From assembly GCA_964246635.1 (NCBI GenBank), contig CAXTRS010000002.1, positions 15,066 through 47,065 of the forward strand: DNA of 32,000 bases, given 5' to 3'. The notes under the pieces are model-generated. The model worked only from the letters and a program-made list of their open reading frames with translations, had not been told where the DNA came from and ran no database searches. Source of the DNA: an uncultured Chthoniobacterales bacterium (GTDB lineage: Bacteria; Verrucomicrobiota; Verrucomicrobiia; Chthoniobacterales; SZAS-18). Made by a program: the position numbers and the translations under genes. This document shows positions 7,223 to 28,684 of the stretch, piece by piece; the first letter of the stretch is position 1, and each line of letters begins with the position of its first letter.

Positions 7223-9181
7223 TCAAATCGTGCGCTTGTCTCCGGTTTTCGGCAGCATTCGCAAATCGCCCTGCCGTCTCGTCACCCCTTCTCGATCGAG
7301 ACGCTCTAGAAATGGCACCAGAATGCGGCGTGTGGTTCCAAGCGCCTGACGTAGTTCACTGGTTGTTGAAGCGCCATGTGCCTGCAGGTGTCGAAGGACT
7401 GCCGCGCGCATGCGCACAAAGCTGGCTGCCGAGAGCACAACCTCGGCGGTGAGTTCCACGGCCTCGCCGGCCTGCACCAAAAAGCGTAGCGCGCTTTGCG
7501 TCAGCGCGTCAGGTGCCAGGACAGCACGCGAAGCTGGCTCGAGAGGTTTTTCCATCAATGCCGCGCGCACGCGAGCCGCCGCAGCTTGCAAATTGGTCGG
7601 CAGGGCGGGGTGATGATCGGCGCGCCGGATTACCGTGTGATTGACGGTGAAGCCTTGCGTCGCTTGCATGTCGGCGATCAAGGCATTGGTCCATCGCACC
7701 GGTGAGCGCCAGGCTTTCGTCAGTGCGTGCTGTAGCTCGAGCAAAGGCAGGCCGGCGCGTTCTGGGTGCTGGCGATGTGCGGTGTCAATAAGCGCGGCGG
7801 CGCATTCGCGCTGAGTCCGCCACCAAGGTCCGTCGGCGGCCAGTGTCGAATTCAAAAAGATCTGGTTGTTCGCGTGCATCTCGCGCAAAGCGGCGGCAAT
7901 CTCAGCGGCGGAAAATCGAGATTGCACGAGCAAGCTCTCGCGGAGGGCAACTCGGTCGCGAGTGAGCTGGGTTGCGAGGAAGACAACCACATTGTCCGAC
8001 GCTTCTGCGCGGCGTTGGAGGAGAGTTCGGCGTGTCGCGGCGCGCCAGCCACGCCGGCTGGTGGCAGGTTCCAAGACGGTGCCCCCGGCGAGGGTCGTCC
8101 GGCCGGAGGCGTCGCGCACAATGAAACGGTCGCCCGCAAAGGCAAAGATCGGTGTGTCCAAACGGACTTGAGCAATGTCCCGCTCCGCCGGGGGGAGCGT
8201 CGCTCGATCCAGCAGAAAAACTCGCGCCGCGTAGCTGCCGCTGCCGAGATGAATGCGCACGCCGCTGCCGCTTTTCAAGAGGGGACCGGTGCTCCCAACC
8301 CGCGCGGAGCGAACGAGCTGCGCGTCGAGGGTATCACTCGATCCGCCCAGCGAAGCGAGCGTGACGACATGCCCGCGACGCAGCGCGCCAGGTTCCGCGA
8401 CGTCGGCGGACAAGTCGGGCAGATTGAGAGCTACGCGGCTGCCGGGTTGACCGGCTTCCACCTCGCGGCGGTAGCTCTGCACGCTGCGCACGCGCGTTGT
8501 GCGACCGCTTGGTTGAACCACGACGTTTTGCCCGCGGCCCAACGAACCGCCGCTGAGCGTGCCGGTGACCACTGTGCCGACTCCACGCAGGGCGAACACG
8601 CGGTCGATTGGCAGGCGCGGCTTGCCGATGTCGTGTGCCGATGGAACGTGCGCGAGCACTCGCGCGAGCGTTGCACGGAGCGGCTCCAATCCGATGTGCT
8701 TGATGCTGGAAACCGGCACGATGGGAGCACCGTGCAGCGAGCTGCCGGCGAGATGGTGTCGAATAGCATCGCTGGTCTCGACGATCCGCTGCGACGTCAC
8801 GAGATCAATTTTCGTCAATGCAATGACGCCGAAACGGACCGCGAGATAATCGAGAATTTGCAGGTGTTCCTCGCTTTGCGGCATCCAGCCATCATCAGCG
8901 GCGACGACGAAGAGCGCGACATCCACCGCGCCCACGCCGGCGACCATGTTTTTGATGAAATCCTCGTGCCCTGGCACATCGACGATGCCGACACGAAAGA
9001 TTTTGTTCGCATCGTTTTGCGCCGGAAGATCAAGGTGCGCAAAACCGAGATCGATCGTGATCCCGCGTTTTTTTTCCTCGGGGAGCCGATCGGGGTTGAT
9101 CCCGGTGAGTGCCTGGACGAGCGCACTCTTGCCGTGATCGATGTGCCCGGCGGTGGCAAGGATGAAAAATTGGTCGATCAT
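7223..9181 (-). CDS. selB: selenocysteine-specific translation elongation factor SelB
   Basis: 652 aa. The GTPase motifs are AGHIDHGKSALVQALTG, DVPGHEDF and TKIDL. A long C-terminal winged-helix extension is typical of SelB. The gene lies in an operon with selA, selD and tRNA-Sec. Confidence 0.93.
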   Translation of the reverse strand: MIDQFFILATAGHIDHGKSALVQALTGINPDRLPEEKKRGITIDLGFAHLDLPAQNDANKIFRVGIVDVPGHEDFIKNMVAGVGAVDVALFVVAADDGWMPQSEEHLQILDYLAVRFGVIALTKIDLVTSQRIVETSDAIRHHLAGSSLHGAPIVPVSSIKHIGLEPLRATLARVLAHVPSAHDIGKPRLPIDRVFALRGVGTVVTGTLSGGSLGRGQNVVVQPSGRTTRVRSVQSYRREVEAGQPGSRVALNLPDLSADVAEPGALRRGHVVTLASLGGSSDTLDAQLVRSARVGSTGPLLKSGSGVRIHLGSGSYAARVFLLDRATLPPAERDIAQVRLDTPIFAFAGDRFIVRDASGRTTLAGGTVLEPATSRRGWRAATRRTLLQRRAEASDNVVVFLATQLTRDRVALRESLLVQSRFSAAEIAAALREMHANNQIFLNSTLAADGPWWRTQRECAAALIDTAHRQHPERAGLPLLELQHALTKAWRSPVRWTNALIADMQATQGFTVNHTVIRRADHHPALPTNLQAAAARVRAALMEKPLEPASRAVLAPDALTQSALRFLVQAGEAVELTAEVVLSAASFVRMRAAVLRHLQAHGASTTSELRQALGTTRRILVPFLERLDREGVTRRQGDLRMLPKTGDKRTI

Positions 9182-9202
9182 CCCGGCGCGCCGGACGGCG
9201 AT

Positions 9203-10297
9203 TTAGATCGTTATTTCGCGCGCGCTGATCTCGTAACGGAAGCGCGCCGGGTCGAGACAGGGACATTTCCCCTCGTTGGTAAAGGCGTGGGGATACATCA
9301 AAAACGCAAAATCAGGTTCCTGCGATCCGATGCCGGGCAACACGATGTCTGTGGCGCTGTTGTAACCGATCCAGTTCATCTCCCATGAGCCGAACAATCG
9401 ATCGCGCAAAGCGCGCACCTCCGGGCTGTTGAGCGCCAGTTTTTGCTCTAGCACGACCTTGCGCACGTCCGCGGGATCCACCGGGAACCAGCCTTCGTCG
9501 TCGAGGAAAATCTCCGAGCGGCAGTGTTGCGCTTTGGAAATGTCTCCGCTGCGCCCCAGACACGGGAACAGGCGCGAGTCAGCGACGCGGATGCCGTAAA
9601 CGTCACGCGCCGGGAAGCCCGCCGCGCGGGCCAATCCGACCATGAGGCTATTGATGTCCGCGCACTTGCCGCCAAACTCGCCACGTTGCAGCATCTTTTT
9701 GATGTCGCCCCGGCCACAGCCGGGCGTGGCGGGGTCGCGATAGGTGTTGTCCACGACCCAATCGTAAATCGCGCGCAGGCGCTCGCGTGGTGTGGTTCGG
9801 TCAGCGACAATTCGCTTGACCGAGTCCTGCGCGATGACATCCGTGGGATCGCTCGGAGTCGGGGCAGTCCAGAACTGCCGCTCAGCCTCGGTCAAAGGCA
9901 GCAGCGGCGTCGCGGCACGGTCGCGCGTAGCGACGGTCTGCACCACTTCGAGGCGGCGCGGCCCGCGGTCTTTGCTCTCCCAAGTCGTATGGAGGATCGG
10001 AGCACCGTAGCGACGGTCAGATTCGCGCGTGGTAAAGCCGGTGCCGTTCCACTGCAGGTCGAGCGCGGTCTGGTAACCACCGGCCGTCTGCGCCACGGGA
10101 AGCCATAATTGCGCGGAACCAGCGGTGTCGGGCAACGTGACGCGAGTGGTGATCTCGAACCGACGCCAGCCCGCTGCGTCTGGCTTGGGAACGGGTGACG
10201 ATTCGCCAGCATGGCCAGGAGTGGGCAAGAGCACCGCCAGCGGTCCGGCGGCGAGCGGAGCGGTCACGGCAGTGGCGAGGAATTTGCGGCGGTTCAT
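9203..10297 (-). CDS. Tat-signal transglutaminase-like (Cys-His-Asp) family protein
   Basis: The N-terminus MNRRKFLATAVTAPLAAGPLA is a twin-arginine-like signal. The transglutaminase core is GKCADINSLMVGLARAAGFPARDVYG...QHCRSEIFLDDEGWFPVDPAD. Confidence 0.75.
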   Translation of the reverse strand: MNRRKFLATAVTAPLAAGPLAVLLPTPGHAGESSPVPKPDAAGWRRFEITTRVTLPDTAGSAQLWLPVAQTAGGYQTALDLQWNGTGFTTRESDRRYGAPILHTTWESKDRGPRRLEVVQTVATRDRAATPLLPLTEAERQFWTAPTPSDPTDVIAQDSVKRIVADRTTPRERLRAIYDWVVDNTYRDPATPGCGRGDIKKMLQRGEFGGKCADINSLMVGLARAAGFPARDVYGIRVADSRLFPCLGRSGDISKAQHCRSEIFLDDEGWFPVDPADVRKVVLEQKLALNSPEVRALRDRLFGSWEMNWIGYNSATDIVLPGIGSQEPDFAFLMYPHAFTNEGKCPCLDPARFRYEISAREITI

Positions 10298-10311
10298 GGG
10301 CTTGGAATAGA

Positions 10312-11682
10312 TTAACGAAACAGGGAGTGAATGGCGCGAACCAAAATCTCATCCTGGCGCGGAAAAATGGTGCGCAAATCCAGCAGCAGCCGACCGGTGG
10401 AAATGTAACCAATGACCGGCGGTGAGCCAAGCCGCAGACGCGCGGCGATTGCGGCGAGCGAATGATTTTGCGGCGCAAGGGCGAGAGCGACGGACGGGAT
10501 GCGCGCGCGCGGCAGCGTGCCGCCGCCGATTCGTGCCGCGCATTCGACGATGCGCAGATGCAGCGGCAGATCGCCGAGTGCGCTGGCGATGTTTTCCGCG
10601 CGCGCGCGCAGTTCGGCGCTGGAGACGCGCAGCAGTCCGAAAACCGGGATTTCGTCGCTACGGTTGGCCAGGTGGTGATCGACCGTGGCTTGCAGCGCGC
10701 CAAGAATGAGTTTGTCACAGCGCAACGCGCGAAAGAACGGTTCGCGCTTGAGCGCGGCGATCCATTTCCGGCGGCCGGCAATGAGACCAGCCTGAGGTCC
10801 ACCGAAAAGTTTATCGCCGCTACAGCAGACGAGATCGGCACCATCGCGCAACGCTTCCGCTGGCGTGCGTTCGTGTTCGACACCCGCCGCCTGGCTTTCC
10901 GTCGCCACCACCGCGCCACTGCCGAGATCTTCGACAAACGGAACCCGGGCCTTGCGCGCCAGCGCTGCGAGTTCGGCAGCATCGGGCGATACGGTGAATC
11001 CACCCTGGTAGAAATTGGAACGGTGGACTTTCAACACGAGCGCGGTGTCGAGGCCGAGCGCGGCGGCATAGTCGGCGGCGTCGGTTTTGTTCGTCGTCCC
11101 GCCCTCCTTGAGCTTCGCGCCGCTGGCTTCCAAAATTTCTGGAATACGGAAGCCGCCGCCGATCTGGATGAGTTCGCCGCGGGAAATGACGACCTCTTTT
11201 TTCGCACGGCGGGTGAAATGCCGCACCACGAGCACGAGCGCGGCGGCGCAGTTGTTGACGACCGCCACGGCTTCGGCAGCGCAAAGCAACGCGAGGTTCC
11301 CTTCCAGATAGCCGGCCCGCGCACCGCGTTCGCCGGTCGCGAGATCATACTCAAGATTGTTATAATTTACGGCGAGATCGGCGAGCGTCGCGACTGCCGA
11401 CGCGGCGAGCGGCGCACGGCCAAGGTTGGTGTGAATGATGACCCCAGTGCCGTTGATTACCGGCTGGATGCGCGAGCGCCAGAGATCTTCCAGGGCGCCG
11501 CGGACGCGAGCGAGCACAGCGTTGAAATCTGGTATCGGGCCAGACTTGATTTCTCCGCGCACGCTCGCCAGTTCGCGCCGGATCGCGGCGACCACGGCGG
11601 GACGCGGAAGATCGAGCGGATCCAGGGCTTGGAGCAGCTTCTCGACCGAGGGAATGGCGCGGAGAACAGGCGACGGATTCAC
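10312..11682 (-). CDS. selA: L-seryl-tRNA(Sec) selenium transferase SelA
   Basis: 456 aa with a GTG start. The N-terminus LRAIPSVEKLLQ and the PLP-lysine region CCSGDKLFGGPQAGLIAG are characteristic of SelA. Confidence 0.93.
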   Translation of the reverse strand: MNPSPVLRAIPSVEKLLQALDPLDLPRPAVVAAIRRELASVRGEIKSGPIPDFNAVLARVRGALEDLWRSRIQPVINGTGVIIHTNLGRAPLAASAVATLADLAVNYNNLEYDLATGERGARAGYLEGNLALLCAAEAVAVVNNCAAALVLVVRHFTRRAKKEVVISRGELIQIGGGFRIPEILEASGAKLKEGGTTNKTDAADYAAALGLDTALVLKVHRSNFYQGGFTVSPDAAELAALARKARVPFVEDLGSGAVVATESQAAGVEHERTPAEALRDGADLVCCSGDKLFGGPQAGLIAGRRKWIAALKREPFFRALRCDKLILGALQATVDHHLANRSDEIPVFGLLRVSSAELRARAENIASALGDLPLHLRIVECAARIGGGTLPRARIPSVALALAPQNHSLAAIAARLRLGSPPVIGYISTGRLLLDLRTIFPRQDEILVRAIHSLFR

Positions 11683-11725
11683 GGGTGAGAACGTCTCGGA
11701 TTTGTGACACCGCAGCGGTGCGCCC

Positions 11726-12787
11726 CTACCTCACCGAGATTTTCGGCTGAGCCGAGCGGACAATTTGACCGATGATGCGGACGCAGGGTGTGCGTTGCTT
11801 TTTCAGCAGCGCCATAACCTCCGTCTGCTTTTTCGGCCGCACGCAAAGCAGCAGCCCGCCGCTGGTTTGTGCGTCGGCGAGCAGGAGGCGCCGAGCAAGA
11901 TCACGCGTGTGCCATTCCGTGACCTCGTTCGCGGTTTCCAAGTTTTGCCGGCTGCCTCCGGGAATGCAGCCGGCTGCGATCAGATCAAAAATTTCCTCGT
12001 GGATCGCCGGCACTCGCGCCGCCTCTATCTCTGCGCCGACGCCACTGGCCTGGCACATCGAAATGAGGTGGCCCAGCAGGCCGTAGCCCGTGATGTCTGT
12101 TGCCGCGCGCACCAACCCAGCTTCGGCTAATACCGCGCCAGCGGTATTGAGCCGGGTCATCAGCGCGACGGCTTTCTTTTCCAACGCCGGCGAGCAAAGG
12201 CCGCGCTTGAGCGCCGTTGTGGCGATGCCGGTGCCGAGGGGTTTCGTTAGAAGGAGAAGGTCGCCTGGCCTGGCGTGCGCGTTCGTCATCATCCGTCGAG
12301 GGTTTACCAGCCCCGTCACTGCCAAGCCGTAGATCGGTTCAGGATTGCGAATCGAATGGCCGCCGATCAGCGCGCACTTCGCTGCTCGCGCCACGCTGGC
12401 GCCGCCGCGCAGGATTTGTGCGATGACCTCCAACGGCAGGAGATCGGTCGGCACACCGAGCAATGCCAGTGCGGTCAATGGCCGGCCGCCCATCGCGAAG
12501 ACATCGCTCAGCGCATTGGTCGCGGCAATGCGTCCATAGGTAAAGGGATCGTCCACGATCGGCGTAAAAAAATCAACGGTCTGCACCAGTGCGCGAGACC
12601 CCGTGGACAGCGGCAGGCGATAAACGCCCGCGTCATCCGCGGTGGCACTGCCGACGAGCAAGTTCGTGTCGCTCGGCAGGCGAGGTAGGTGACGCAAAAC
12701 TTGCGTCAGAGCCGTCTGGCTCAACTTTGACGCTCAACCGGCGCAGCTCGATAGGGCCGTCAGCTTCAGGCTTGCTTTACGCGACAT
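11726..12787 (-). CDS. selD: selenide, water dikinase SelD, Sec-containing form (in-frame UGA at 12734..12736, residue 18)
   Basis: ORF-track entry 11726..12724 starts at TTG just after an in-frame TGA. Reading through gives MSRKASLKLTALSSCAGUASKLSQTALTQVL... from ATG 12785..12787. This reproduces the SelD N-terminal glycine-rich loop, in which Sec/Cys precedes xxK (E. coli GAGCGCK). The rest of the protein is clearly SelD-like (NLLVGSATADDAGVY...). Confidence 0.88.
12691..12736 (-). promoter_or_regulatory. selD UGA plus candidate SECIS region (two hairpins)
   Basis: Two hairpins follow the UGA on the minus strand. The first is GAGCC-AGAC-GGCUC (plus coordinates 12709..12722). The second is GACGCAA-GUU-UUGCGUC (12691..12707), with its loop 33 nt after the UGA. 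I cannot decide by eye which of them, if either, binds SelB. Confidence 0.4.
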
Positions 12788-12827
12788 GACGCATCACCTC
12801 CGTTCTAGAATAGATGATAGATGAAAG

Positions 12828-12926
12828 TGGCGGAGAGGGCCGGAATCGAACCGACCTCGCCTGCGCGAACGCAGGCCGACAGCAGTTTTGAAGACCGCGA
12901 GGGCCACCAGGCACCCATCACTCTCC
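12828..12926 (-). tRNA. selC: tRNA-Sec (anticodon UCA), 99 nt including encoded CCA
   Basis: The minus-strand sequence is GGAGAGTGATGGGTGCCTGGTGGCCCTCGCGGTCTTCAAAACTGCTGTCGGCCTGCGTTCGCGCAGGCGAGGTCGGTTCGATTCCGGCCCTCTCCGCCA. It has a long acceptor stem, the anticodon loop CUUCAAA (UCA), a long variable arm (CUGUCGGCCUGCGUUCGCGCAGGCGAG) and a GGTTCGATTCC T-arm. It lies immediately upstream of selD. Confidence 0.92.
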
Positions 12927-12986
12927 GGTAAAATCAAGCCGCCGAACCGGCTGCTGCGAGCCGCGACGCTGCTGAAGCGGCAACTG

Positions 12987-13205
12987 TTAAAGCTTGTTGT
13001 GAATCGTTTTGACCAGCTTGTCGAAGCTGGGGAACCAGCCGGCCTGGAACTTGGAATGGAACAGTTCACTTTTGATGCTGACTTCGAAGGCACCATCGCC
13101 GGTCGGCGCATGGAGCATAGTGACGGTGCGCCACTCGAGTCCGAGAATTCTCGCCGACAGGCTGGTGGTCTTGAAGTCGTAATTTCAGACCGCGCGGTAT
13201 TGCAA
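12987..13205 (-). CDS. SelW-like (Rdx/SelW-SelT-SelH family) small selenoprotein candidate, in-frame UGA at 13185..13187; N-terminus atypical, possibly decaying
   Basis: This ORF is not in the ORF track. The minus-strand frame reads (TTG)MQYRAV-U-NYDFKTTSLSARILGLEWRTVTMLHAPTGDGAFEVSIKSELFHSKFQAGWFPSFDKLVKTIHNKL*. The spacing YxxxU near the N-terminus, GxFEV and SK..G.FP match the SelW-like thioredoxin-fold pattern. Arg replaces the usual Cys of CxxU, and only 6 residues precede U. Confidence 0.5.
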
Positions 13206-13564
13206 TGACGATTACCCGCTTCGTTGCGCGTGAGCTTTTCTACGCTGGCGCGTGTGCAGCGTCAAATTTCTCCGGACCTTCGGCGAGGATGCCGCCGAAT
13301 TTCGACTGAAGCAAAAAATTACTGTGACTTCCGGCATGGCTGATATGCTCTCCAAGTGCTGGAGAAATTCGACGGCAAGGGGGGTGACAATTCGGGTGGT
13401 AGGAATTCTCGTTTGGTGCGCCATCGTGGCTGACCGGCAGCCACGTCAACCATTCCCAATGCACCCGTTGCGGATTTTGAGGCTTGACCCTAAGATGTTT
13501 TGCCGATAGACCTCGATTCCACGAGATTCAGGATTCCGAATGCGACTCGGGAGGAACTAACCGG

Positions 13565-13831
13565 ATGGAAATTGAACCTGTTAAAGCCCGCATCAAGGAT
13601 ATTATTCGCGAGTGTGCTCAGCTTCCGCCCGGCGACATAGACGAGGCGGCGAACCTGCATCAAGAATTGAGGATCGACTCCCTTACGCTTCTCGAAATCG
13701 CTCTGATGATCGATCAGGAGTTCAAGACCGACTTTTCAGAAAACGAACTCATGACTATGGCGAGTGTTCAAACCGCCGCTGCCATGGTCGTCAATCGGCT
13801 CGCGGCGAAGTCGGTTAGCCAACCTGTGTGA
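13565..13831 (+). CDS. acyl carrier protein (phosphopantetheine-binding)
   Basis: Based on ORF 13484..13831. The start was moved to ATG 13565, which is preceded by GGGAGGA (13549..13555). The Ser attachment motif is LRIDSLTLLEIALMIDQEF. The stop overlaps the KS start (GTGTGA). Confidence 0.85.
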   Translation: MEIEPVKARIKDIIRECAQLPPGDIDEAANLHQELRIDSLTLLEIALMIDQEFKTDFSENELMTMASVQTAAAMVVNRLAAKSVSQPV

Positions 13832-15048
13832 AGTCGATTGTTATCACCGGCTTGGGACTGGTGACGCCCATCGGGTCAGGTGTGGAGTCCTTCTGGCGCA
13901 ATCTGCTGGAGGGGCGAAGCGGTTTTTCCGAGGTTTCGAGCTTCGATACGAGTGGATATCGGGTTCACCGCGGAGCTGAAGTTCAAGGTGATTGCTGGGA
14001 CAACGGATTTCTTAACGAAAGTGATCGCGTCCACGGGCGCACCCTGCAGTTTGCCCTGGCCGCAACCCGGATGGCGCTTGAAGATGCCGGCCTGCCGCCC
14101 GGCGATCTCGATCCCTCGCGAACGGGGATCGTCATGGGCACGACATCGGGCGAGCCAGGTGAGATCGAGCATTTCAACGACCTCGACATCGCGCAAAGAC
14201 TGAGCGAACTCGGCTCCCGCTTTACGGATCGTTATCCGTGCCATCATATTCCTGGTTTAGTTGCAGCCGACCTAGGGATTTACGGCGGGGGAGGGCCAGT
14301 GATGCTGCCAGTGGCCTGTGCCGCCGGCAATTGCGCCATTGCTCATGCATTCGATCTTCTCCGCACTGGGGAGGCTGATGTGATGCTGGCGGGCGGGGCG
14401 GACGCTTTCTCGCGAATCCCCTACACCGGATTCTCGGGGATGCTGGCAATTGCCCCCGAACGGTGCCAGCCATTCGATCGGAACCGCAGAGGCATGATCC
14501 CCGGCGAGGGTGTGGCGATCCTCGTCCTCGAAAGCCGCGAGCGCGCCATCGCGCGCGATGCCCGCATCTATGCCGAAGTTGCCGGATACGGCCTTTCGTG
14601 TGACGCGTATCATATGACCGGGAGCGACCCGGATGGGCGCGGAGCCGCTCGGGCGATGGAAAAAGCGTTTGCCCAAGCCGGATGCTCGCCCTGCGATGTG
14701 GACTACATCAGCGCTCACGGCACTGGCACGAAGAGCAACGACTTTCACGAGACGATGGCCGTCAAGCGGGTCTTCGGAGACAGGGCATATCGTGTCCCGA
14801 TCAGTTCCATCAAATCGATGCTGGGCCATACCATGGGGGCCGCCTCGGCGATCGAAGCGGCGACGTGTTGTCTCGCGATCACTCGCAGCGCCATCCCAGG
14901 GACGATGAACCTCATGGAAGCCGACCCCGACTGCGATCTTGACTATGTCCCGAACGCAGCGCGCGCCAGACCTGTCAAATTGGCGATGAACAATGCCTAC
15001 GCGTTCGGCGGCACCAACGCCTCGCTCCTTCTCCGAGGACTCTCATGA
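13828..15048 (+). CDS. beta-ketoacyl-ACP synthase (FabF/KS-alpha type), catalytically complete
   Basis: 406 aa. The Cys-His-His triad contexts are present: PVACAAGNCAIAHA, ISAHGTGTKSND and MLGHTMGAASA. The C-terminus NAYAFGGTNASLLL is typical of KS. Confidence 0.9.
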   Translation: MKSIVITGLGLVTPIGSGVESFWRNLLEGRSGFSEVSSFDTSGYRVHRGAEVQGDCWDNGFLNESDRVHGRTLQFALAATRMALEDAGLPPGDLDPSRTGIVMGTTSGEPGEIEHFNDLDIAQRLSELGSRFTDRYPCHHIPGLVAADLGIYGGGGPVMLPVACAAGNCAIAHAFDLLRTGEADVMLAGGADAFSRIPYTGFSGMLAIAPERCQPFDRNRRGMIPGEGVAILVLESRERAIARDARIYAEVAGYGLSCDAYHMTGSDPDGRGAARAMEKAFAQAGCSPCDVDYISAHGTGTKSNDFHETMAVKRVFGDRAYRVPISSIKSMLGHTMGAASAIEAATCCLAITRSAIPGTMNLMEADPDCDLDYVPNAARARPVKLAMNNAYAFGGTNASLLLRGLS

Positions 15049-16289: not shown

Positions 16290-16293
16290 TGTC

Positions 16294-17456: not shown

Positions 17457-17464
17457 TCTCTGCC

Positions 17465-18958: not shown

Positions 18959-18959
18959 G

Positions 18960-19397
18960 ATGACTCTGAACCGAGAACAACTCCAAGAACTCTTGCCGCA
19001 TCGTCCGCCGATCTTGATGCTGGATAAGGTCATTGACGTTATCCTGCGCAAGAGCGGGAAGGGAGTGAAGCGCTTCCTGGAAGATGATCCATGTTTCGCC
19101 GGACACTTTCCCGGCATGCCTATCCTGCCGGGCGTTCTGGCGATCGAAGCCCTCGCCCAGACAGCGGCCGTCGTATTCCTCGCAGAGAACCTGACGGCTG
19201 GACGCCCGCACGCCCCCAGTCTGTTAGGCAGGGTGAACGAAATGGCATTTTTTCATCGAATCGTGCCGGGTGATGAGATTGAATTCGCAATCGAAGTCGA
19301 GCGAATTGTCGGCCCATTCGCCTTTGTCAAGGGTGAGGCGACCGCTGGCATTAAGCAATGTGCCCGTGGCAGATTAACGCTCAAGATAGCAGGATGA
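18960..19397 (+). CDS. FabZ/FabA-like 3-hydroxyacyl-ACP dehydratase (hot-dog fold)
   Basis: 145 aa. LPHRPPILMLDKV and the active-site region FAGHFPGMPILPGVLAIEALAQ are both present. Confidence 0.85.
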   Translation: MTLNREQLQELLPHRPPILMLDKVIDVILRKSGKGVKRFLEDDPCFAGHFPGMPILPGVLAIEALAQTAAVVFLAENLTAGRPHAPSLLGRVNEMAFFHRIVPGDEIEFAIEVERIVGPFAFVKGEATAGIKQCARGRLTLKIAG

Positions 19398-19415
19398 CGG
19401 CCGACTTGGAGCCAA

Positions 19416-21149: not shown

Positions 21150-22603
21150 ATGAGAAACTTTCACTCGCGCCAATTCTCTTCGAGCCTCCCGTTGAGAGTC
21201 TGGTCGAACTGTACGCCACCGAAGGCGCTATTCCACCGTTGCTCTGTGGAACCTACTACCTCAATGGGCCTGCCAATTTCCGTCGCGGAGACTTTACCTA
21301 CACGCACTGGCTTGACGGCGACGGTTTGATTCGGGCGCTACGCTTCGCCGATGGCCGCGCGATCCACTGCTCACGCTTCGTTCGTTCTCGAAAGTATCAA
21401 GATGAGCACGCGGCCGGCCGGCCCCTCTACCGAGCTTTTGGGACAGTGTTTCCGAACGATCGCCTGCGCCGTCGCATCGCGCTCGAATCTCCGGTCAACG
21501 TCAGCGTTTATCAATTCGAGCAGCATCTTTTCGCGTTCGGAGAGCAATGCCTGCCGTGGGAGCTTTTGCCCGAAACTCTGGAAACGGTGGGAGAGTGCAG
21601 TTTTCGTCGATTCTTTCCCGAGATCAGCCCGTTCTCGGCGCATCCGAAAATTGATCACGACGCTCGGCGCCTCTGCAATTTTGGGCTGAAGTTCGGCATG
21701 ACGGGCAGCAAGCTTGCCTACTGGGAATTCAACGCGAACCTGGCGCTACACTTTGAAACCGAGTTTGCGGTTGAGTTGCCGTATTCCGTTCACGATTTTG
21801 CGCTCAGCACGCGTTTCGCCGCCTTCTATCTTAGTCCTTACTTATTGGAGGTCGCGCCCTTCCTGCGTCAGGGCCGCTCGCTTTTTGACGCCCTGGCCTG
21901 GCGCCCAGAGCTGGAAAATGTGTTGCTGTTGACCGAGCGAATTCCCAAAGGAAAAAAGTGGCGTATTCCGATAGATTGTCGGGGTTACTGCCTGCACTTG
22001 ATCAATGGGTTTGATGACGGAGACACGATGGTGATCGACGTTATCGAGACTGAGGAACCCCTCTATCCACAGTATCGTCCGCTGCCCGATCTATTTTCGA
22101 CCGTCAAGCCTTGCGCGATCGTTCGTCTTCGGATCGATGTGCGCTGCGGGATGGTGCTCGAGGTGTTGGAGGCGCCACTACAGGTGCATTTGGATTTCCC
22201 TGCGCTGCTGCCAGAAAGCCACGGGAAACCCTATCGGAAAGTATGGATGCTTGGCATGCCGACAGAGCCGCGCAACGCATCAAAGTATTATGATCGCCTC
22301 CTCTGTTTCGATTGGGACCAGCGTGCCATTGTCGATCAATACGTTCCCCCGCCGGGGGTGTATCTCTCAGGCGAGCCTTCCCTTTTGAGAGCAGGATCTG
22401 CTGAAGCCGAGGCGCTGCTGATCTGCCCCCGCTGGCATGCCGCAGAGAACCGCAGCGATTACATTCTCCTCAATGCTTTTTCTCTTTCGACCGCGCCGAT
22501 CGCAGTCCTGCCGTTGCCGCATCCAAGTCCGCTGGCCTTTCATTCCAGCTTCGAGACCGATGCGAAAACTTTTTCCTTTCCAAAGCCGCCGATTTCTCCT
22601 TGA
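21146..22603 (+). CDS. carotenoid cleavage oxygenase (RPE65/CCO/lignostilbene dioxygenase) family protein
   Basis: 485 aa; its ATG overlaps the upstream stop (ATGA). The family N-terminal region reads GTYYLNGPANFRRGDFTYTHWLDGDGLIRALRF. Further His contexts are FSAHPKIDH, SVHDFAL and YCLHLINGF. Confidence 0.8.
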   Translation: MNEKLSLAPILFEPPVESLVELYATEGAIPPLLCGTYYLNGPANFRRGDFTYTHWLDGDGLIRALRFADGRAIHCSRFVRSRKYQDEHAAGRPLYRAFGTVFPNDRLRRRIALESPVNVSVYQFEQHLFAFGEQCLPWELLPETLETVGECSFRRFFPEISPFSAHPKIDHDARRLCNFGLKFGMTGSKLAYWEFNANLALHFETEFAVELPYSVHDFALSTRFAAFYLSPYLLEVAPFLRQGRSLFDALAWRPELENVLLLTERIPKGKKWRIPIDCRGYCLHLINGFDDGDTMVIDVIETEEPLYPQYRPLPDLFSTVKPCAIVRLRIDVRCGMVLEVLEAPLQVHLDFPALLPESHGKPYRKVWMLGMPTEPRNASKYYDRLLCFDWDQRAIVDQYVPPPGVYLSGEPSLLRAGSAEAEALLICPRWHAAENRSDYILLNAFSLSTAPIAVLPLPHPSPLAFHSSFETDAKTFSFPKPPISP

Positions 22604-22604
22604 A

Positions 22605-22633: not shown

Positions 22634-22660
22634 GAGATCGTCTCGTGACCTGCATTGCGT

Positions 22661-25189
22661 ATGGAAACTCCTCCTAGACAAGCGAAACCGGCCCAAAGAC
22701 GTCGACGCCTTGTCAAAGCACTGGTGGCTGTCGTGATCATCGGCTTGGTCGGGAGTGGTGGCGGTTGGCTTTACGTACGACACGTCGGGGCTGAGGCCAA
22801 ACGCGTCTATGAGCTGGGTTCGACCCTCAATGCGTTCTTCGCGCGGTATTCCACCTCCCTCAAGAAGCGAAACGTTGAAGGCATACTCGACCTTTACGAT
22901 TCGAACTATCTCAGCGAGCGAGAGGGGTTGCTGAAAGAGGAGCTTAGTTGGCAGGACGGAACTGCGCCGGAGATCGAAAGCCGGGTGCGCGTCTATACGG
23001 TGAAGGAAACTGATGTCCATCGTTTCGCCAAGGGTGACGTGCGTCAACAGATCGAAGCGCAACTGGCGGCGATGGATTACATTAATTTTGCAAAATTCAA
23101 GATCGAGAGAATCGAAGAGCAAGCCGGCTCAGACCGTGCGACACTGAAAACGCTGCTCTGGCTCCGCGGGCAGCAGGAAAGTGGCGAGACCGTTGAGACA
23201 CATATCTACCTTCGCCTATGGCTTTCGAAAAACGACGGTTGGAAGATTGAGCGCCGAGAATTTTTGGGCGGCACGACCGTGCGCGGCAGAGGGAAGGGCA
23301 TTACCGAGGTGACGTCGCAGGCGGGATTGGACTTCAAAGCGCATCACAACCCAATGTTTCTCGAAGAGCAGTGGAAACCAGAGATGTTTCAAATAATGCG
23401 CTATTCCCATGGCGGTGTGGCAACTGCGGATTACGACAACGACGGCTGGTATGATATCTACCTGTGCGATGGGGAACGGCCGCGGCTTTACCGAAATCTG
23501 GGGAATGGAAAATTTGAGGACGTAACGAAGAAAGCCGGGCTCCCGGAGACGCTGCCGGGGGTGCATGTGGCGATCTTTGCGGATTTTAACAACGATGGAT
23601 TTCCTGATCTATTCCTCGGCCGCTCAACGGCCTAGAACAAGCTCTACCGCAATAATGGGGACGGCACCTTTACCGATGTCACGGAAGGAGCCAACATTGG
23701 CGGTTATTGGGTCTCAACGGCGTCGGCGATCGATTACGACAACGATGGCCTGATCGATCTCTATTTGGGGCGTTACCTCGATCCGCGCAAGAATGTGCCG
23801 ACTACGCTCTTCTACACCCGCAACGGCGAAGGGAACACGCTGCTCCATAACGATGGGAATTTCAAATTCACCGATGCGACGACGAAGGTCACGCGCGAAG
23901 GCGGCTTGACTCTCGGGCTCGCCTGGGGCGATTTCGACGGGGACGGCAAGCCGGACGTATATGTGGTGAACGATTTCGGCCGCAACGCTCTGCTAAAGAA
24001 CAATGGCGACGGAAACTTTACCGATGTCAGCCAGGCCACCGGGACACTGGATATTGGATATGGGATGAGTTCGACGTTTGCGGATTTCAACAATGATGGC
24101 CGGCTGGACATCTACGTTTCCAACGTCCACTCCGGGCAGCGCTGGTTTGGCAATGAAGCGACGCTGCGCAATTACTTAGTCACTTCATTCAAACAGGGGA
24201 CTATTCGCGAGGATCGCAAACTGTTTGAGGAAATTCGCGGCTTCATCGGAAATAATTGGGAAGACTTTGGCGAACGCGTCATCCGCGGTAATTCGCTCTT
24301 GCTGAACCGCGGCACCTACTTCGAGGACGTTACGGAGCAGGCGCAGGTCAATCCCCACGGTTGGTATTGGGGCGGCGTTGCCTTCGATTATGATAATGAT
24401 GGCCTACTGGACATCTATATCGCCAATGGCTGGATCACCGGCAAAAAGCCGGACGATCTCTGACTACCTTATATTTCGTCCGCGGTCGCGGACATTAAAG
24501 CCTACAAATCAGGAAAATTCTACTCGGACGAATTTCGCGGAGACAGTTCCTGGAACGGCGACGAACATAACGTCCTTCTCAAGAACCTCGGTAACGGTCG
24601 CTTTGTCGATGTAGCGCTCGCACTCGGGTGCGACGATGTCCGCGATGGGCGCGGTGTCGCCGTAGCCGATTTCGATAATGACGGCGATTTCGATATTGTG
24701 GTAAATAACAATCCTGGGATCGGCCAGGAAGTAGCGCCGGTGCTGTATCGCAATGACATCGGGCAACGGAACAATTGGCTGGAGGTCGATCTTGTGGGCA
24801 CGCTCGCGAACCGCGATGCGGCGGGCTCAGAGGTGCGGTTGGAATTGCCGGACGGTCAGAAGTTGATGCGGCATGTGGTAATCGGCTCTGGGTATGCCTC
24901 CCAGCAGAGTCGGCGCCTCGGATTCGGCATTGGCAAGGCGACAGAGATCTCCAAGCTGCACGTCCGCTGGCTCGGACCGGGCGGCGGCGAAGACACATTC
25001 GAGCATGTGACGCCCAACCAAATCCTTCGCATCACCCAAGGCGGGAAAGGTCTGCCAGCCACACTCCTCACGCATAGCGTGCCGGCCGGGCAGGATAGCG
25101 GAGCCCAGCTCGGCCAGACCCCGCCGGCGGCAGCCCCGCTCGCTACTTCCGCGAACCAATCCGCCGCGGTGCCAGTCGCGCAGCCATGA
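22661..25189 (+). CDS. membrane-anchored CRTAC1/ASPIC-UnbV family FG-GAP (VCBS) repeat protein, paralogue 1; in-frame TGA (24461, predicted Sec) and in-frame TAG (23633, possible pseudogenisation)
   Basis: ORFs 22655..23635, 23765..24463 and 24698..25189 share one frame, and the two stops are the only interruptions. Conserved FG-GAP sequence fills the gaps between them. There is an N-terminal TM segment (LVKALVAVVIIGLVGSGGGWLYV), repeated DxDxDG/LYRNxGxGxFxDVT units, and a C-terminal UnbV_ASPIC-like region (NNWLEVDLVGTLANRDAAGSEVRL...GSGYASQQSRRLGFGIG...VRW). Confidence 0.75.
24461..24493 (+). promoter_or_regulatory. UGA plus SECIS-like hairpin (GUCCGC-GGUC-GCGGAC) in paralogue 1
   Basis: The TGA is at 24461..24463. 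The 6-bp stem spans 24478..24483 and 24488..24493, and the GGUC loop is at 24484..24487, starting 20 nt after the UGA. Confidence 0.7.
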
Positions 25190-27693
25190 ACGCAATCGCC
25201 TCTCATCCGCCGAAGCCGGCGCGCGGGCGGCGGTGGCTTCTGATCTTGCTTGCCGCGGTCGCAGCGCTGCTTTTGATAATCTGGGTTGGAGCGATGCTTT
25301 ACATGCGCGCCGCTGACGCGGAGTTCCTCGCGTTTCGCGATGCCGGTGTTGGAGTCAATAAATGCCTGAAATCCTTTGGACAGGCCGTTACCGATGCCGT
25401 CGCGTCGCAGAAGTTCGATGAGGTTGGCGGCTACTACGCCGCGGACTTCCAAGCGCCTGGGCGCGGACATTGGAAGCTCGCCGAGCCGATCGTTCACAAC
25501 GGGATTTCGTTTGAGTCACTGCAGAAAGTCGATTCCGTTGACTTCAACCGTGCAGCGGCTGCCGAGCACTGGAGCGCCTATCTGGCGGGCTTGGCAAAGG
25601 TGCAAAATTTCGAATGCAAGATCAATCTAGCCGAGGATATCCAACCAGGAAAAACGGCGCGGGTGACAGTAAAATATATCGTTGATGCGCTGGATCGCGC
25701 GGGGCGCCTGGTGCAGGATCGATTTTTTTTCCGCTGGTGGCTGCGCGTCAGCACCAACGGGCATGGATGGGAGATCGTGCGAGAGGAGTTGCTATCTGAT
25801 CCGGAGGTTTCGAATGTCCGAGTCACCGGCTCTGGCAACGGTTTTGAGCTCGTGGACCTGAAGAAGGCGGGGATCGATTACGTTCATCACCGCGACCCCA
25901 ACCTCGATCCGACGCGTCCGGGGGTAAACCTGAAGTTTCAAGTTATCGAGCACTCCCCCGGAGGCGTCGCCGTAGCCGATTTCGATGGCGACGGCTGGCC
26001 TGATATATTCTTTTGCGATGGAAAGCAAAGCCGCCTTTACCGCAACTTGGGGAGCGACGGAGCTGGAGGATGCAAGTTCGAGGACGTGACTCAACAGACT
26101 GGACTGAGCGGCATCGACCGCGCCACCTGCGCTTTGTTTGCGGATATCAATAATGACGGGCACAAAGACTTGTTCGTCGGGCGTTACGGCGCGCCGTGCC
26201 TTCTCTACATCAATAATGGCGATGGCACCTTCACAGAGCGCGGCCACGAAATGGGACTCGACCTGGTTCAGCCAGTAACTGCGGCCTGCCTGCTCGACTA
26301 CGACCATGACGGATTCATCGACCTCTACCTTGGCGTGAATGGCGATGCGGTGCACGAAGTGCCGCGCATTCCGTTTTTCGCCCGCAACGGCCTGCCAAAT
26401 CGGCTATACCGAAATCTGCAAGGCAGGGGCTTTCAAGATGTGACAGCGCAGGCAGGCGTAGGGGACACCGGCTGGAGCCTCGCTGTGTGCGCGGGCGACT
26501 TTGACGGGGACGGCTGGACGGATTTGGCCGTGGCCAATGACTTCGGGCGAAAGAGTCTCTACCGCAATAATCGCAACGGCACGTTTACAGAATGTGCCAA
26601 GGAGGCCGGAACGCTCGATTTTAGCGGGGGCATGGGAATTTGCATGGGCGACCTCGACGGCGACGGGTGGGCCGACCTCTATACATCGAATATCTATTCC
26701 AATCAGAGGTGGCTCGGCGAGGAGAAGGCGTTGCTGCAGTATGCTCGCAACACAGTTCGTTCCAGGTGGATATTTCGGGATTTCGGCGAATTTCGCGATC
26801 TCTACCAGATGGTAAACGGTGACTGGCGATCGGTGGGACGAATGGCCGGCGAGGGTAACTCGCTTTTCCGTAACAACCACGACGGCACTTTCCGCGAGCA
26901 GCGCGAAAGCTGCACCAACCGCGCCGGTTGGGGCTGGGGTGTCGCGCTCTTCGACGCGAATAACGATGGTCGGCTCGATATTTTCGCCGCGAACGGCTGG
27001 ATCACCGGTGAAAAAAAGGACGATCTCTGACTACCTTTCCTTAGCGGTGCGGTCGCACTGCTCGATGATTACAAGGACGGACGTTTCTTCGGCGAAGGTT
27101 TCGTCGCAAATAACTCGTGGAATGGCTGGGAGCGCAAGCTTCTCTTCCTCAATCTCGGTGATGGGAAATTTGACGACATCGCACGCGCCGCCGGCTGCGA
27201 CGACATCCGGGACGGCCGCGGAGTCGCAATCGCCGACCTGGACAAAGATGGCCGACCGGATGTGATCATCAACAACAACAATGCCGCACCGACCATCTAC
27301 CTGAACCGACTGCCGGCCACTGGAAACTGGTTTCGCTGCACCTTGGTCGGCGCAGCGGGGAAAGGCGGTAGTAACCGCGACGCCGTGGGAGCCCGCGCAA
27401 CGCTGCGCACCACGGTCGAAGGAGCACCGCGACAGACCGTCCGCTGGGTGGAAGCAGGCTCCGGTTATGCGGCGCAATCCGAAGTGACGCTTCATTTTGG
27501 CCTCGGCGATGCCCGGGTAATCGATGGGTTGACCATTGCCTGGCCTTCCGGCCTCACCCAGGAGATTACCGCTAAGGAATTGGAAGGCTTGGTAAATCGC
27601 GAGTGCATTATCGTGGAGAACCACGGGCTTACCCCGATTGGACAGACTGCTGGCGGGCATAACACCGCTGTGGCAACTCCGGCGCAGCACTAA
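25186..27693 (+). CDS. membrane-anchored CRTAC1/ASPIC-UnbV family FG-GAP (VCBS) repeat protein, paralogue 2; in-frame TGA at 27028 (predicted Sec, residue 615)
   Basis: ORFs 25186..27030 and 27262..27693 share a frame, with no stop in 27031..27261. That gap encodes conserved sequence (NLGDGKFDDIARAAGCDDIRDGRGVAIADLDKDGRPDVII). The architecture matches paralogue 1: a TM segment, FG-GAP repeats and a UnbV_ASPIC-like C-terminus (GNWFRCTLVGAAGKGGSNRDAVGARATL...GSGYAAQSEVTLHFGLG...IAWPSG). The ATG overlaps the paralogue 1 stop (ATGA). Confidence 0.8.
27028..27062 (+). promoter_or_regulatory. UGA plus SECIS-like hairpin (AGCGGUGC-GGUC-GCACUGCU) in paralogue 2
   Basis: The TGA is at 27028..27030. 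The 8-bp stem (including one G-U pair) spans 27043..27050 and 27055..27062. The GGUC loop is at 27051..27054, again starting 20 nt after the UGA. Confidence 0.7.
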
Positions 27694-27706
27694 GCGCGGT
27701 GGGCGC

Positions 27707-28684
27707 ATGGCCCCGCTCATGAATATCCACTCGCACGCGTTTGCGGCGATCGGGCGGCAACAGCGGGCGTTGGTGAGGCACATTCATCCACCGGTGCGCT
27801 CCGATGGCGATCCGCTGAGTCGGCAAATTGTCAACGAATTCGGCTTCGTGCCGGCGCCGGTCTTGTTGCACGATTGCACCGACGGGCTTTTCGCCGGCAG
27901 TTGGATGCTCCTGCGCGAGACGATGCTGGTCGGGACGGTGCCGCGTGCGGAGAAGGAATCCCTCAGCCTCGCGATTTCCCGCGCGAACCGATGCCCGTTC
28001 TGCGTCGAGAGCCACGGCATGGCGCTGGCGGCTCTACACGCGAAAGTAAATGGAAATTTAATGGAGGAGCGAGAGCGGTCGCCGGAGGAGAGATCGGAGA
28101 TTAATGGCACGACCGTGCTTTTCCATTACCTGAACCGAGTGGTGAACGTCTTTCTCGATGAATCTCCTCTGCCCCCGCTGCTGCGGCTTCGTGCCTGGCG
28201 ACCGGCTTGGCAGCGGATTGGCGGATGGACCTTCGCGCCGCTCGCTGCGGAACGACTTGTTCCCGGCGAATCTCTCGGCTTTCTGCCGGAAACTCCGCTT
28301 CCTCCAAATCTATCATGGGCGCAAGGGCAGCCCCATCTTGCCGGCGCTTTCGCGCGCTTTGCGGATGCGCTGGAAAATGCCGCGCGGACTGCTTTACCAC
28401 CCGCTACCCGTGAACTCGTTCAACGGCAAATCAATTCCTCCGTCATCGCCTCGACCGAAAATACCGAGGCATGGATAAGCGGCGCGACGTCCGGTCTGCC
28501 CGTCGATGACCGCCCGCTCGCGGTCCTTGCTCTGCTCGCTGCCTTCGCCTCCTACCGCGTCTCCCCCCAGCACATCGAGGCAGCGCGAGACGGCGGCGCA
28601 GATGACTCGACGCTGGTAACGACCGTTGCTTGGTCGGCCTTTACATTGGCCAAGATTCTCGGCACGATTTCGCCTACCTATTGA
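27707..28684 (+). CDS. AhpD-like / carboxymuconolactone decarboxylase (CMD) family CxxC redox protein
   Basis: Based on ORF 27638..28684; the start is probably ATG 27707, 13 nt after the upstream stop. It carries the AhpD-type motif RCPFCVESHG (CxxCxxxH). Confidence 0.65.
   Translation: MAPLMNIHSHAFAAIGRQQRALVRHIHPPVRSDGDPLSRQIVNEFGFVPAPVLLHDCTDGLFAGSWMLLRETMLVGTVPRAEKESLSLAISRANRCPFCVESHGMALAALHAKVNGNLMEERERSPEERSEINGTTVLFHYLNRVVNVFLDESPLPPLLRLRAWRPAWQRIGGWTFAPLAAERLVPGESLGFLPETPLPPNLSWAQGQPHLAGAFARFADALENAARTALPPATRELVQRQINSSVIASTENTEAWISGATSGLPVDDRPLAVLALLAAFASYRVSPQHIEAARDGGADDSTLVTTVAWSAFTLAKILGTISPTY

Follow-up and report, generated by a model that had tools for sequence, protein, structure and literature searches.

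Predicted selenocysteine-containing CRTAC1-like propellers linked to a ketosynthase-HMGR-like-CrtI-like gene core in an uncultured Chthoniobacterales bacterium and other bacteria

A 32,000-nucleotide stretch of DNA from an uncultured Chthoniobacterales bacterium (positions 15,066 to 47,065 of contig CAXTRS010000002.1, assembly GCA_964246635.1; hereafter the window) raises the question of what genes for selenocysteine (Sec) decoding have to do with a divergently oriented operon that runs from an acyl carrier protein (ACP) gene to an AhpD-like gene and includes two FG-GAP repeat protein genes with in-frame UGA codons. The original prediction, made from the letters of this stretch, had joined the biosynthetic genes, the UGA-containing proteins, a thiol-redox partner, and the decoding genes into one functional unit. 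Our comparative analysis favors a different partition, to which we assign a probability of roughly 0.6: the FG-GAP proteins would be Sec-containing β-propellers that form, with the biosynthetic core and a thiol reductant, an undescribed system in which a selenolate carries out redox chemistry on a lipid or polyene product, the adjacency of the sel genes being incidental. The sequences themselves show the gene content, the Sec decoding signals, the conserved linkages, and the absence of sel linkage elsewhere; we infer the topology, redox role, substrate, and product of this system.

Are the UGA codons of the two FG-GAP genes read as Sec? The genes follow each other on the plus strand: gene 1 lies at 22661-25189, with its UGA at 24461-24463, and the intact gene 2, which matches PF13517, PF01839, and PF07593 (UnbV_ASPIC), lies at 25186-27693, with its UGA at 27028-27030. 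When these are aligned with orthologs (39-78% identity) drawn from 80 species-representative genome loci and from metagenome contigs, the codon at this site is TGA in all 34, and never TAA or TAG; the taxa named for the TGA-bearing genome loci are Verrucomicrobiota, Acidobacteriota, Poribacteria, and 'Multivoradales'. Were the codon free to be any stop, 34 TGAs would be expected by chance with a probability of about 6e-17. The reading frame and the motif NGW-x7-(D/E)(L/F)-U-LP(Y/F)xx(S/G)AVA cross the TGA, and the UnbV_ASPIC domain then follows in frame. A hairpin of the kind expected of a bacterial Sec insertion sequence (bSECIS) is found at 24478-24493 in gene 1 (GUCCGC-GGUC-GCGGAC) and at 27045-27060 in gene 2, where the stem can be extended to AGCGGUGC-GGUC-GCACUGCU (27043-27062), both on the plus strand. 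Across the 34-sequence alignment, the hairpin starts 14 nt after the UGA (+18 to +33) and has an invariant GGUC loop, 81% of the cells of its stem pair, and its third and fourth pairs covary (CG with UA, 22 versus 11; GC with CG, 29 versus 4). None of 500 column shuffles reached the observed covariation score, and all slid registers scored far lower. At the protein level, loop and stem correspond to the conserved peptide (S/G)-A-V-A, and most of the covarying bases are third positions of Ser/Gly and Ala codons, which argues for a constraint on the RNA rather than on the protein. We take this hairpin architecture to be that of the fdhF-type bacterial SECIS of Escherichia coli. UGA also serves as the ordinary terminator of 9 of the 16 genes in the window; hence, the genetic code is standard, and UGA has not been reassigned. 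Taken together, these features identify the in-frame UGA of each FG-GAP gene, on comparative sequence evidence, as a genuine Sec codon.

Public gene calls present the family otherwise: they split the N-terminal 600-aa and C-terminal 200-aa pieces, as though the UGA were an ordinary stop between two separate genes, and the fragments carry the NCBI name 'VCBS repeat-containing protein'. Gene 2 has more than 7,600 database homologs at E<=1e-10, and the best 120 listed are all 484-667 aa long, cover about 70% of the query, and end at the UGA position; in a search with the C-terminal 219 aa, all matches that are at least 47% identical are orphan fragments of 155-231 aa. Yet the called starts of the C-terminal pieces are scattered from 13 to about 240 nt downstream, the non-Sec paralogs are single open reading frames (ORFs), and the break would interrupt the final portion of the propeller, leaving the end of a structural model of residues 1-614 disordered. 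With the stop codon invariably TGA, the frame and motifs continuing across it, and the SECIS covarying, we consider the division into two ordinary genes exceedingly improbable.

One part of the earlier claim that both genes are recoded has to be amended. The codons at 24461 and 27028 stand as predicted Sec codons, but the first in-frame stop of gene 1 is a TAG (23633-23635), which the Sec machinery cannot read, so that gene 1 is not recoded at this point. The same codon is GAG (Glu) in the 81%-identical ortholog of locus L086 (comparison loci are given by number) and in L001, and the position is variable across orthologs (E, D, R, P, N, S, or C). The TAG is probably either a single G-to-T nonsense change, which would make gene 1 a recent pseudogene, or a sequencing or assembly error.

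What kind of protein would carry this Sec? Residues 1-614 of gene 2, which end just before the Sec, were modeled with AlphaFold2 from a 50-sequence alignment, giving a predicted local distance difference test score (pLDDT) of 89.4 and a predicted template modeling score (pTM) of 0.86. The model comprises a long N-terminal helix (13-74) interpreted as a transmembrane (TM) anchor and preceded by KPARGRR, an α+β cone resembling NTF2 (residues ~78-215), and then the FG-GAP blades. In Foldseek, murine CRTAC1 (9ETN; E=1.8e-13) ranks first among PDB structures and fungal seven-bladed lectins come next; CRTAC1 (9ETN) is also the only sequence match among solved structures. With FG-GAP repeats folded as a β-propeller and a UnbV_ASPIC domain after them, the proteins belong to the CRTAC1/ASPIC-UnbV class. 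Their positively charged N-terminus followed by a TM helix indicates an N-in anchor, which would leave the propellers facing the periplasm on the outer face of the cytoplasmic membrane.

The residue that takes the place of Sec in other members of the family is not Cys. Neither the best 120 homologs nor the best 150 representatives from a search with the C-terminal part show Cys at the Sec position; the latter search was dominated by giant multi-repeat proteins and is informative only for the absence of full-length Cys orthologs. Paralogs that are 36-44% identical, have the same architecture, and adjoin the same biosynthetic core (L011, L012, L024, L026, L028, L029, and L056) have Glu there, in the motif (T/S)E(I/L)-E-L(E/D/Q)F; in more distant paralogs, the residue is Gly, Tyr, or Val. 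An interchange of Sec with Glu in the same genomic slot, and never with Cys, is unusual for selenoproteins.

What, then, is the core beside which these propellers lie? The operon opens with a gene for an ACP with a DSL motif (13565-13831; weak NCBIfam ACP matches, with orthologs carrying PP-binding), followed by a FabF-like ketosynthase (KS; 13828-15048; Pfam ketoacyl-synt N- and C-terminal domains), in which an active-site alignment shows the Cys-His-His triad to be present (ACAAG, HGTGT, and GHT), and by an inactive KS partner resembling a chain length factor (CLF; 15045-16289), which has the KS fold with the triad replaced by Thr, Ser, and Glu in the alignment. A discrete ACP with a DSL motif, a KS with its triad, and a partner devoid of the catalytic Cys place these three among type II KS-CLF systems. 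Next come an NAD(P)H reductase resembling HMG-CoA reductase (HMGR-like; 16294-17496; PF00368, E=5.9e-88) and a FAD oxidoreductase of the CrtI/amine oxidase family (CrtI-like; 17465-18958; PF01593), which reaches 147.7 bits against TIGR02734 (crtI_fam), below the cut-off of 238. The reductase is a cluster-specific paralog with many residues invariant among 19 homologs; its 267.1 bits against TIGR00533 fall below the equivalog cut-off of 441.8, and it is therefore HMGR-like, not a mevalonate-pathway HMG-CoA reductase by that criterion. Between the CrtI-like gene and the propellers, the window has three further genes, which encode a FabZ/ApeI-ApeP-like dehydratase (18960-19397; PF07977, with orthologs carrying ApeI-like/ApeP-like domains), a flavin-dependent halogenase-like or monooxygenase-like protein (19416-21149), and a dioxygenase of the RPE65/carotenoid cleavage oxygenase (CCO) family (21146-22603; PF03055, E=5e-79), all, like the core, on the plus strand. 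The halogenase-like protein matches PF04820 in part (positions 151-286 of 458), has the motifs GAGLAG (GxGxxG) and WFWVIP (WxWxIP), and shows weak NCBIfam similarity to LodB/GoxB (47.7 against a cut-off of 400) and CmlS (42.9 against a cut-off of 900).

We asked in both directions whether core and propellers travel together. The forward comparison used the 80 genome loci, each 20 kb and anchored on the HMGR-like gene, their content being read from tblastn maps and the collection's own gene calls. Alongside the HMGR-like gene, a KS was found in 57, a CLF in 60, and a CrtI-like gene in 69, with absences mostly at contig ends. The other enzymes are far less constant (FabZ in 5 of the 80, halogenase-like in 25, and CCO in 24, nearly always with the halogenase-like gene), and they constitute an optional add-on module outside the invariant core. 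Sec-type propellers directly follow CrtI in 14 of the 80 loci, from several phyla, and in 12 of these 14 they are tandem pairs. Downstream sequence of at least 8 kb was available in 56 loci; among these, the Sec pair was counted in 11, the halogenase-like and CCO genes together in 19, both in 3, and neither in 27. In the reverse direction, starting from Sec-type propellers 49-71% identical to those of the window, ACP-KS-CLF-HMGR-like-CrtI-like genes were immediately upstream in all six long contigs. Both comparisons thus uphold the earlier proposal of a unit that joins the biosynthetic genes to the Sec-containing FG-GAP proteins; despite the differing gene orders, it is conserved, and propellers of this family adjoin the core in at least five bacterial phyla.

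These orders fall into recognizable forms. The canonical form of Acidobacteriota (L087-L089) begins with a histidine kinase and a LuxR-type regulator, continues with ACP, KS, CLF, HMGR-like, CrtI-like, and two Sec propellers, and ends with a PlsC/DAGAT-type acyltransferase, an ABC1 kinase, one or two proteins of no recognized kind, and a redoxin; the conserved downstream proteins of no recognized kind in these canonical loci have no match in Pfam. The order of the window itself, with FabZ, halogenase-like, and RPE65 genes inserted, recurs in L090 and L092, and in L090 the pair is followed by DinB_2, an antisense aldehyde dehydrogenase, and a redoxin. Other arrangements involve the add-on module. 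Six Thermoanaerobaculia loci (L010, L057, L058, L066, L074, and L079) have two tandem KS-CLF-HMGR(-CrtI) core copies, one followed by the halogenase-like and CCO genes and the other by CrtI, which suggests pathway duplication and specialization. In L082-L085 (e.g., L083 10081-14120), the halogenase gene is cut to its first 22 codons, and the genes that follow encode two large proteins, whose domains include collagen repeats and Peptidase_S74 (endosialidase chaperone); the tailing module has thus been replaced there.

A tight, conserved order with the propellers directly after the core would also be expected if the core made a prosthetic group or lipid that is covalently attached to the propeller Sec (or Glu), as in a cofactor or lipidation pathway. 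Sec and Glu, the two residues that interchange, are both nucleophiles that on chemical reasoning could form selenoester or ester adducts, and the halogenase-like protein has some similarity to the protein-modifying flavoenzymes LodB, GoxB, and QhpG. However, half of the core loci have no propeller, 16 of the 19 halogenase-CCO loci with enough downstream sequence have none either, the LodB/GoxB score is far below its cut-off, and the PlsC/DAGAT-type acyltransferase points to a free lipid, so that we hold such an attachment to be quite unlikely. The narrower idea that the halogenase-like protein is a LodB/GoxB-type maturase for the propellers was rejected as the principal explanation on the same two grounds, the usual absence of propellers beside the halogenase-CCO pair and the scores far below cut-off.

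Is there a thiol-redox partner, as had been supposed? Small redoxins of ~170-190 aa with lipoprotein signal peptides (e.g., LQGC and LAGC) and a WCxxC motif, and hence TlpA/ResA-like exported proteins, lie in many of the propeller loci (L087 917-1444 and 21274-21804; L088 20449-20949; L089 18784-19299; L091 16598-17131; L090 14765-15325; L001 16182-16757). A lipoprotein redoxin accompanies 12 of 22 Sec-propeller loci and none of 71 others (Fisher's exact p=1.6e-9), whereas loci of both classes contain the acyltransferase and the ABC1 kinase, which often follow the core; the thiol-redox partner accordingly belongs to the unit. An exported protein of the carboxymuconolactone decarboxylase (CMD) type with a CRYC motif lies upstream in L088. 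The partner in the window itself would be the AhpD/CMD-like protein encoded after the propeller pair (27707-28684, plus strand; PF02627; TIGR00778 ahpD_dom, 43.9 bits against a cut-off of 27.8), which has the redox motif CPFCVESH (CPFCxxxH) of that family. Its ortholog in L001, the closest relative with the same order, is 44% identical and occupies the same position after the pair. In L001 and L090, the redoxin is found just beyond the aldehyde dehydrogenase, the point at which the window ends. A CAP12/Pycsar-type TIR effector (13919-14572) lies between the AhpD-like and aldehyde dehydrogenase genes of L001, where the window has a transposase.

The specificity of this reductant bears on whether the propellers are enzymes at all. 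They might instead be calcium-binding surface proteins, adhesins, or sensors that are coregulated with an envelope-lipid pathway and use Sec for redox sensing or metal binding. Structurally, they are closest to CRTAC1 and fungal GlcNAc lectins, they have no conserved Cys partner for the Sec, the Glu of the paralogs is compatible with a metal ligand, and a histidine kinase and a LuxR-type regulator stand upstream in the canonical loci. A TlpA-like reductant confined to loci with Sec-type propellers and an NTF2-like cone beside the membrane anchor are harder to accommodate in such a role, as is the Sec itself, given the cost of its incorporation and its almost invariable use as a catalytic redox residue (PMC13188914). 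We therefore judge a nonenzymatic function unlikely, while giving it real weight.

Several observations weigh against the redox-enzyme interpretation that we prefer. CRTAC1 and the fungal lectins are binding proteins, not enzymes. With Glu at the site, the paralogs are at least as suggestive of acid/base catalysis, a nucleophile, or a metal ligand as of thiol-type redox chemistry. A search for a resolving Cys found none invariant in the first 614 residues, and the Cys of the GCDD that follows the Sec in the window proteins shows no conservation. The AhpD-like protein of the window has no signal peptide, and its compartment may differ from that of the propellers. On the biosynthetic side, 27 of the 56 core loci with sufficient downstream sequence have neither propellers nor the halogenase-CCO pair, and the cluster has no ketoreductase (KR), enoylreductase (ER), or acyltransferase (AT) gene of the synthase type.

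Does the unit also carry its own decoding machinery? This window does hold selA, selB, selD, and tRNA-Sec, i.e., the full Sec machinery for this genome. Reading outward from the spacer on the minus strand, these genes are preceded by a SelW/Rdx-like ORF (12987-13205; PF10262 Rdx, 26.4 bits against a cut-off of 22.6), with an in-frame UGA at 13187-13185. There follow tRNA-Sec with anticodon UCA (12828-12926; ARAGORN; Rfam RF01852, 62.8 bits against a gathering score of 47); the selenophosphate synthetase gene selD (11726-12787; AIRS and AIRS_C domains), with an in-frame UGA at 12736-12734; the Sec synthase gene selA (10312-11682; PF03841, E=2.5e-117); a gene for a transglutaminase-like protein (9203-10297; PF01841 Transglut_core, E=2.7e-21); and selB, the Sec-specific elongation factor gene (7223-9181; TIGR00475, 323 bits against a cut-off of 242; GTP_EFTU, Beta-barrel_SelB, and SelB-wing_3). 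The UGA of selD is translated in the context SSCAG-U-ASK and has a hairpin downstream; we take its position, by alignment with Cys17/Lys20, to be equivalent to Cys17 of E. coli SelD. In the SelW-like ORF, the U aligns with the Sec/Cys position of the Rdx family, only six codons precede it, the motif is RAVU (RxxU) rather than CxxU, and no convincing SECIS hairpin was found after the UGA; this appears to be the weakest of the four UGA candidates, and the ORF may be decaying or atypical. A terminator-like hairpin (12952-12937) lies between it and tRNA-Sec. The transglutaminase-like gene is spaced 14 and 21 nt from selA and selB, its product matches no NCBIfam family, and we know of no standard sel operon that includes a transglutaminase-core protein.

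The gene content described for the two operons is confirmed, with nearly all genes as placed, and the divergent spacer is exactly 359 bp (13206-13564), from the TTG of the SelW-like ORF (13205) to the ATG of the ACP gene (13565). The back-to-back operons, the position of all UGA candidates of the window inside the block, and the insertion sequences (IS) on both sides make it attractive to regard the whole 21-kb block, sel operon included, as an integrated selenium unit with its own decoding, perhaps a mobile island. In other bacteria, sel genes sometimes adjoin selenoprotein genes. The selenoprotein operons reviewed in PMC13188914 form a related background. The relatives, however, do not share the arrangement. 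Of the loci, 43 extend at least 8 kb upstream, and none of them contains a sel gene; across all 80 loci, SelA, SelB, and SelD have no match meeting the length criterion (the only match to the SelB query, in L078, covers residues 8-254 at 31% identity), and tRNA-Sec was found in none. In the closest DNA relatives (L082-L086), ~80% identity extends over 13580-19471 and is lost upstream of 13579/13580, inside the ACP gene; the genes further upstream, encoding proteins of no recognized kind or aldehyde dehydrogenase/DeoC, are unrelated to the window. In L002, L007, and L092, which share the window's extended gene order, the 360-745 bp available upstream of the ACP gene resemble neither the spacer nor the SelW-like ORF nor tRNA-Sec, and ARAGORN found nothing in them.

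The claim that the unit brings its own decoding machinery is thus not borne out. The comparative check proposed with the original prediction, namely, whether related clusters elsewhere are linked to UGA-containing FG-GAP genes and to sel genes, came out in favor of the first linkage and, by its own yardstick of orthologous clusters that lack the link, against the second. A composite transposon carrying the whole block was rejected, the flanking IS being of different families and without common repeats. With sel genes absent from other loci, homology starting at the ACP gene, and IS elements nearby, the sel/ACP arrangement appears from the sequences compared to be a feature of this genome only, a local IS-associated accident, and we consider the integrated selenium unit very unlikely. 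The ACP gene lies only 360-745 bp from the contig end in L002 (1-745), L007 (1-360), and L092 (1-541), and the recurrence of such upstream ends in three independent relatives suggests a repeat or hard-to-assemble element at this boundary.

How might the parts of the favored system, the core, the Sec propellers, and the thiol reductant, work together? The ACP, the KS/CLF pair, and the HMGR-like and CrtI-like enzymes would build and reductively process a specialized acyl or polyenyl chain destined for the membrane. The core has no KR, ER, and AT genes of its own, and these activities are therefore presumed to be borrowed from fatty acid synthesis. By analogy with the conversion of HMG-CoA to mevalonate, the HMGR-like enzyme would carry out an NAD(P)H-dependent thioester reduction, and the CrtI-like flavoenzyme would desaturate or oxidize the chain, after which the acyltransferase would incorporate the product into a membrane lipid. 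Where the optional module is present, FabZ, the halogenase-like protein, and CCO, together with the antisense aldehyde dehydrogenase, might dehydrate the chain, halogenate or oxygenate it, and cleave the polyene, giving an aldehyde and subsequently an acid.

In one large branch, the core would then act with tandem membrane-anchored propellers, each consisting of an N-in TM helix, an NTF2-like cone, a CRTAC1-like propeller, and UnbV_ASPIC. NTF2-like folds often bind hydrophobic ligands, and the membrane-proximal cone could hold a lipid tail. The selenolate would be the redox nucleophile acting on the lipid or polyene product of the cluster or on an oxidized form of it; this suggestion of redox chemistry on a lipid derives from the obligate Sec and the dedicated exported thioredoxin. 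TlpA-like lipoprotein thioredoxins would use their WCxxC motif to recycle the propellers, with the AhpD-like CxxC protein as the partner in this window. The sel operon would supply Sec as it might from anywhere in the genome, and gene 1 would be inactivated in this genome by its amber codon. Going a step further, the propellers may represent a new class of extracytoplasmic selenoenzyme, in which a CRTAC1-like propeller with an obligate catalytic Sec acts on a new polyketide-like membrane lipid or polyene and is recycled by lipoprotein thioredoxins; we put this forward tentatively, as a possibility to which we give somewhat less than even odds.

The layout of the operon is compatible with concerted expression. 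The overlaps and gaps previously listed for the plus strand are correct: ACP/KS, KS/CLF, halogenase-like/CCO, and the two FG-GAP genes overlap by 4 nt, and the gaps are 4, 1, 18, 57, and 13 nt. The one amendment is that the HMGR-like and CrtI-like genes overlap by 32 nt if the first ATG is used. Scans for consensus promoters and terminators gave hits at chance level, with no consensus promoter in the 359-bp spacer, and for this reason co-transcription of the plus-strand genes remains at the level of plausible.

The surroundings of the two operons are rich in mobile elements. An intact ISL3-family IS (5929-7159, minus strand; transposase with DDE_Tnp_ISL3 and Zn_ribbon_ISL3), a context marker outside the system, has perfect 30-bp terminal inverted repeats (5929-5958 and 7130-7159) and sits 64 bp downstream of the selB stop. 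The left flank further contains an rve integrase (1990-2976), a resolvase remnant (3429-4025), and an inverted repeat of 38 nt (92% complementary, with a 28-nt spacer) at 3132-3235. On the right, a DDE_5 transposase (28979-29728, minus strand; domain match) is inserted between the AhpD-like gene and the antisense aldehyde dehydrogenase (31078-31995, minus strand; PF00171), which runs off the end of the window; L001 and L090 keep the dehydrogenase nearby without this DDE_5 IS, and the antisense dehydrogenase is a recurrent neighbor of the halogenase-CCO-type cluster (L001, L006, and L090). Left of the sel operon, at 3859-5511, is a gene for a vanadium-haloperoxidase-like protein (DUF6851, VCPO_2nd, and PAP2), a relative of which (31% identity) is encoded directly upstream of the KS in L023 (6028-6711). 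The presence of both haloperoxidase-like and halogenase-like genes hints at halogen chemistry around the pathway.

If this reading holds, it would add to the known selenoproteins a widespread family with a non-thioredoxin fold, which annotation pipelines now split into two 'VCBS repeat' fragments. The lack of Cys orthologs, rare among selenoproteins, would offer a natural test of what Sec does beyond Cys. The propellers would provide a genetic handle on an uncharacterized, multiphylum lipid or polyene pathway of dominant soil bacteria, and bacterial CRTAC1-like propellers would gain a concrete biochemical context. Common among soil Acidobacteriota and Verrucomicrobiota as well as in further phyla with few cultured members, the system would, if the interpretation is true, tie selenium availability to the chemistry of envelope lipids in soil. 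The window would also illustrate that sel genes adjoining selenoprotein genes can be a local accident.

How does this system compare with those already described? To our knowledge, no member of the CRTAC1 family has been reported as a selenoprotein or as an enzyme. NCBIfam release 20 has no model for the Sec-propeller family, the deep-Sep supplementary tables list no FG-GAP, VCBS, ASPIC, or β-propeller family, and none of the 119 prokaryotic selenoprotein families and subfamilies of a 2026 catalogue (PMC13188914) is of these kinds. A full-text literature search, which left subscription journals and some supplements outside its reach, returned nothing relevant linking FG-GAP, VCBS, ASPIC, UnbV, or CRTAC1 with selenoproteins or selenocysteine, and no paper in the literature searched combines KS, CLF, HMGR-like, and phytoene-desaturase-like enzymes. 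We therefore regard the Sec-propeller family and its operon as undescribed.

With CRTAC1 and other ASPIC-UnbV proteins, the window proteins share the pair of domains, to which they add a TM anchor, an NTF2-like domain, and an invariant Sec in a subfamily-specific insertion, and they are fixed beside a KS/CLF biosynthetic core. That core resembles the highly reducing type II polyketide synthase/fatty acid synthase-like systems for aryl polyenes, ishigamide, and cispentacin (AmcF/AmcG) in its discrete ACP, active KS, and Cys-less CLF, but differs from them in having HMGR-like and CrtI-like enzymes as invariant partners. The likeness to cispentacin extends to weak NCBIfam matches to AmcB, AmcE, and AmcF in the window, all below their cut-offs. 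Aryl polyene clusters have in common with it only the KS-CLF pair, the ACP, and the ApeI/ApeP-like dehydratase, whereas their aryl-starter enzymes, thioesterase, LolA/MMPL export proteins, and glycosyltransferase were not found in the window or the canonical loci, so that it does not qualify as an aryl polyene cluster.

The predicted SECIS shares with that of fdhF a hairpin directly 3' of the UGA and a GGUC loop ~20 nt from the UGA, although the window family conserves a shorter stem of 4-8 bp, in which the fifth pair is often an A·A mismatch. To GPX4 and to periplasmic TlpA/ResA relays there would be a functional likeness, that of a membrane selenolate protein near unsaturated-lipid genes with a dedicated thioredoxin-fold reductant; GPX4, however, has an unrelated fold, and the window propellers have neither a UxxT or CxxU motif nor a conserved resolving Cys, with Glu in their paralogs. 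Selenoprotein operons such as grdA-grdB, prdB-prdC, frhA-frhD-hdrA, SAO, and Tso (PMC13188914) likewise bring two selenoprotein genes side by side, presumably for cooperation at the level of a pathway. Those operons serve energy or organometal metabolism, whereas the pair in the window consists of β-propeller paralogs in an operon of the lipid or polyketide type.

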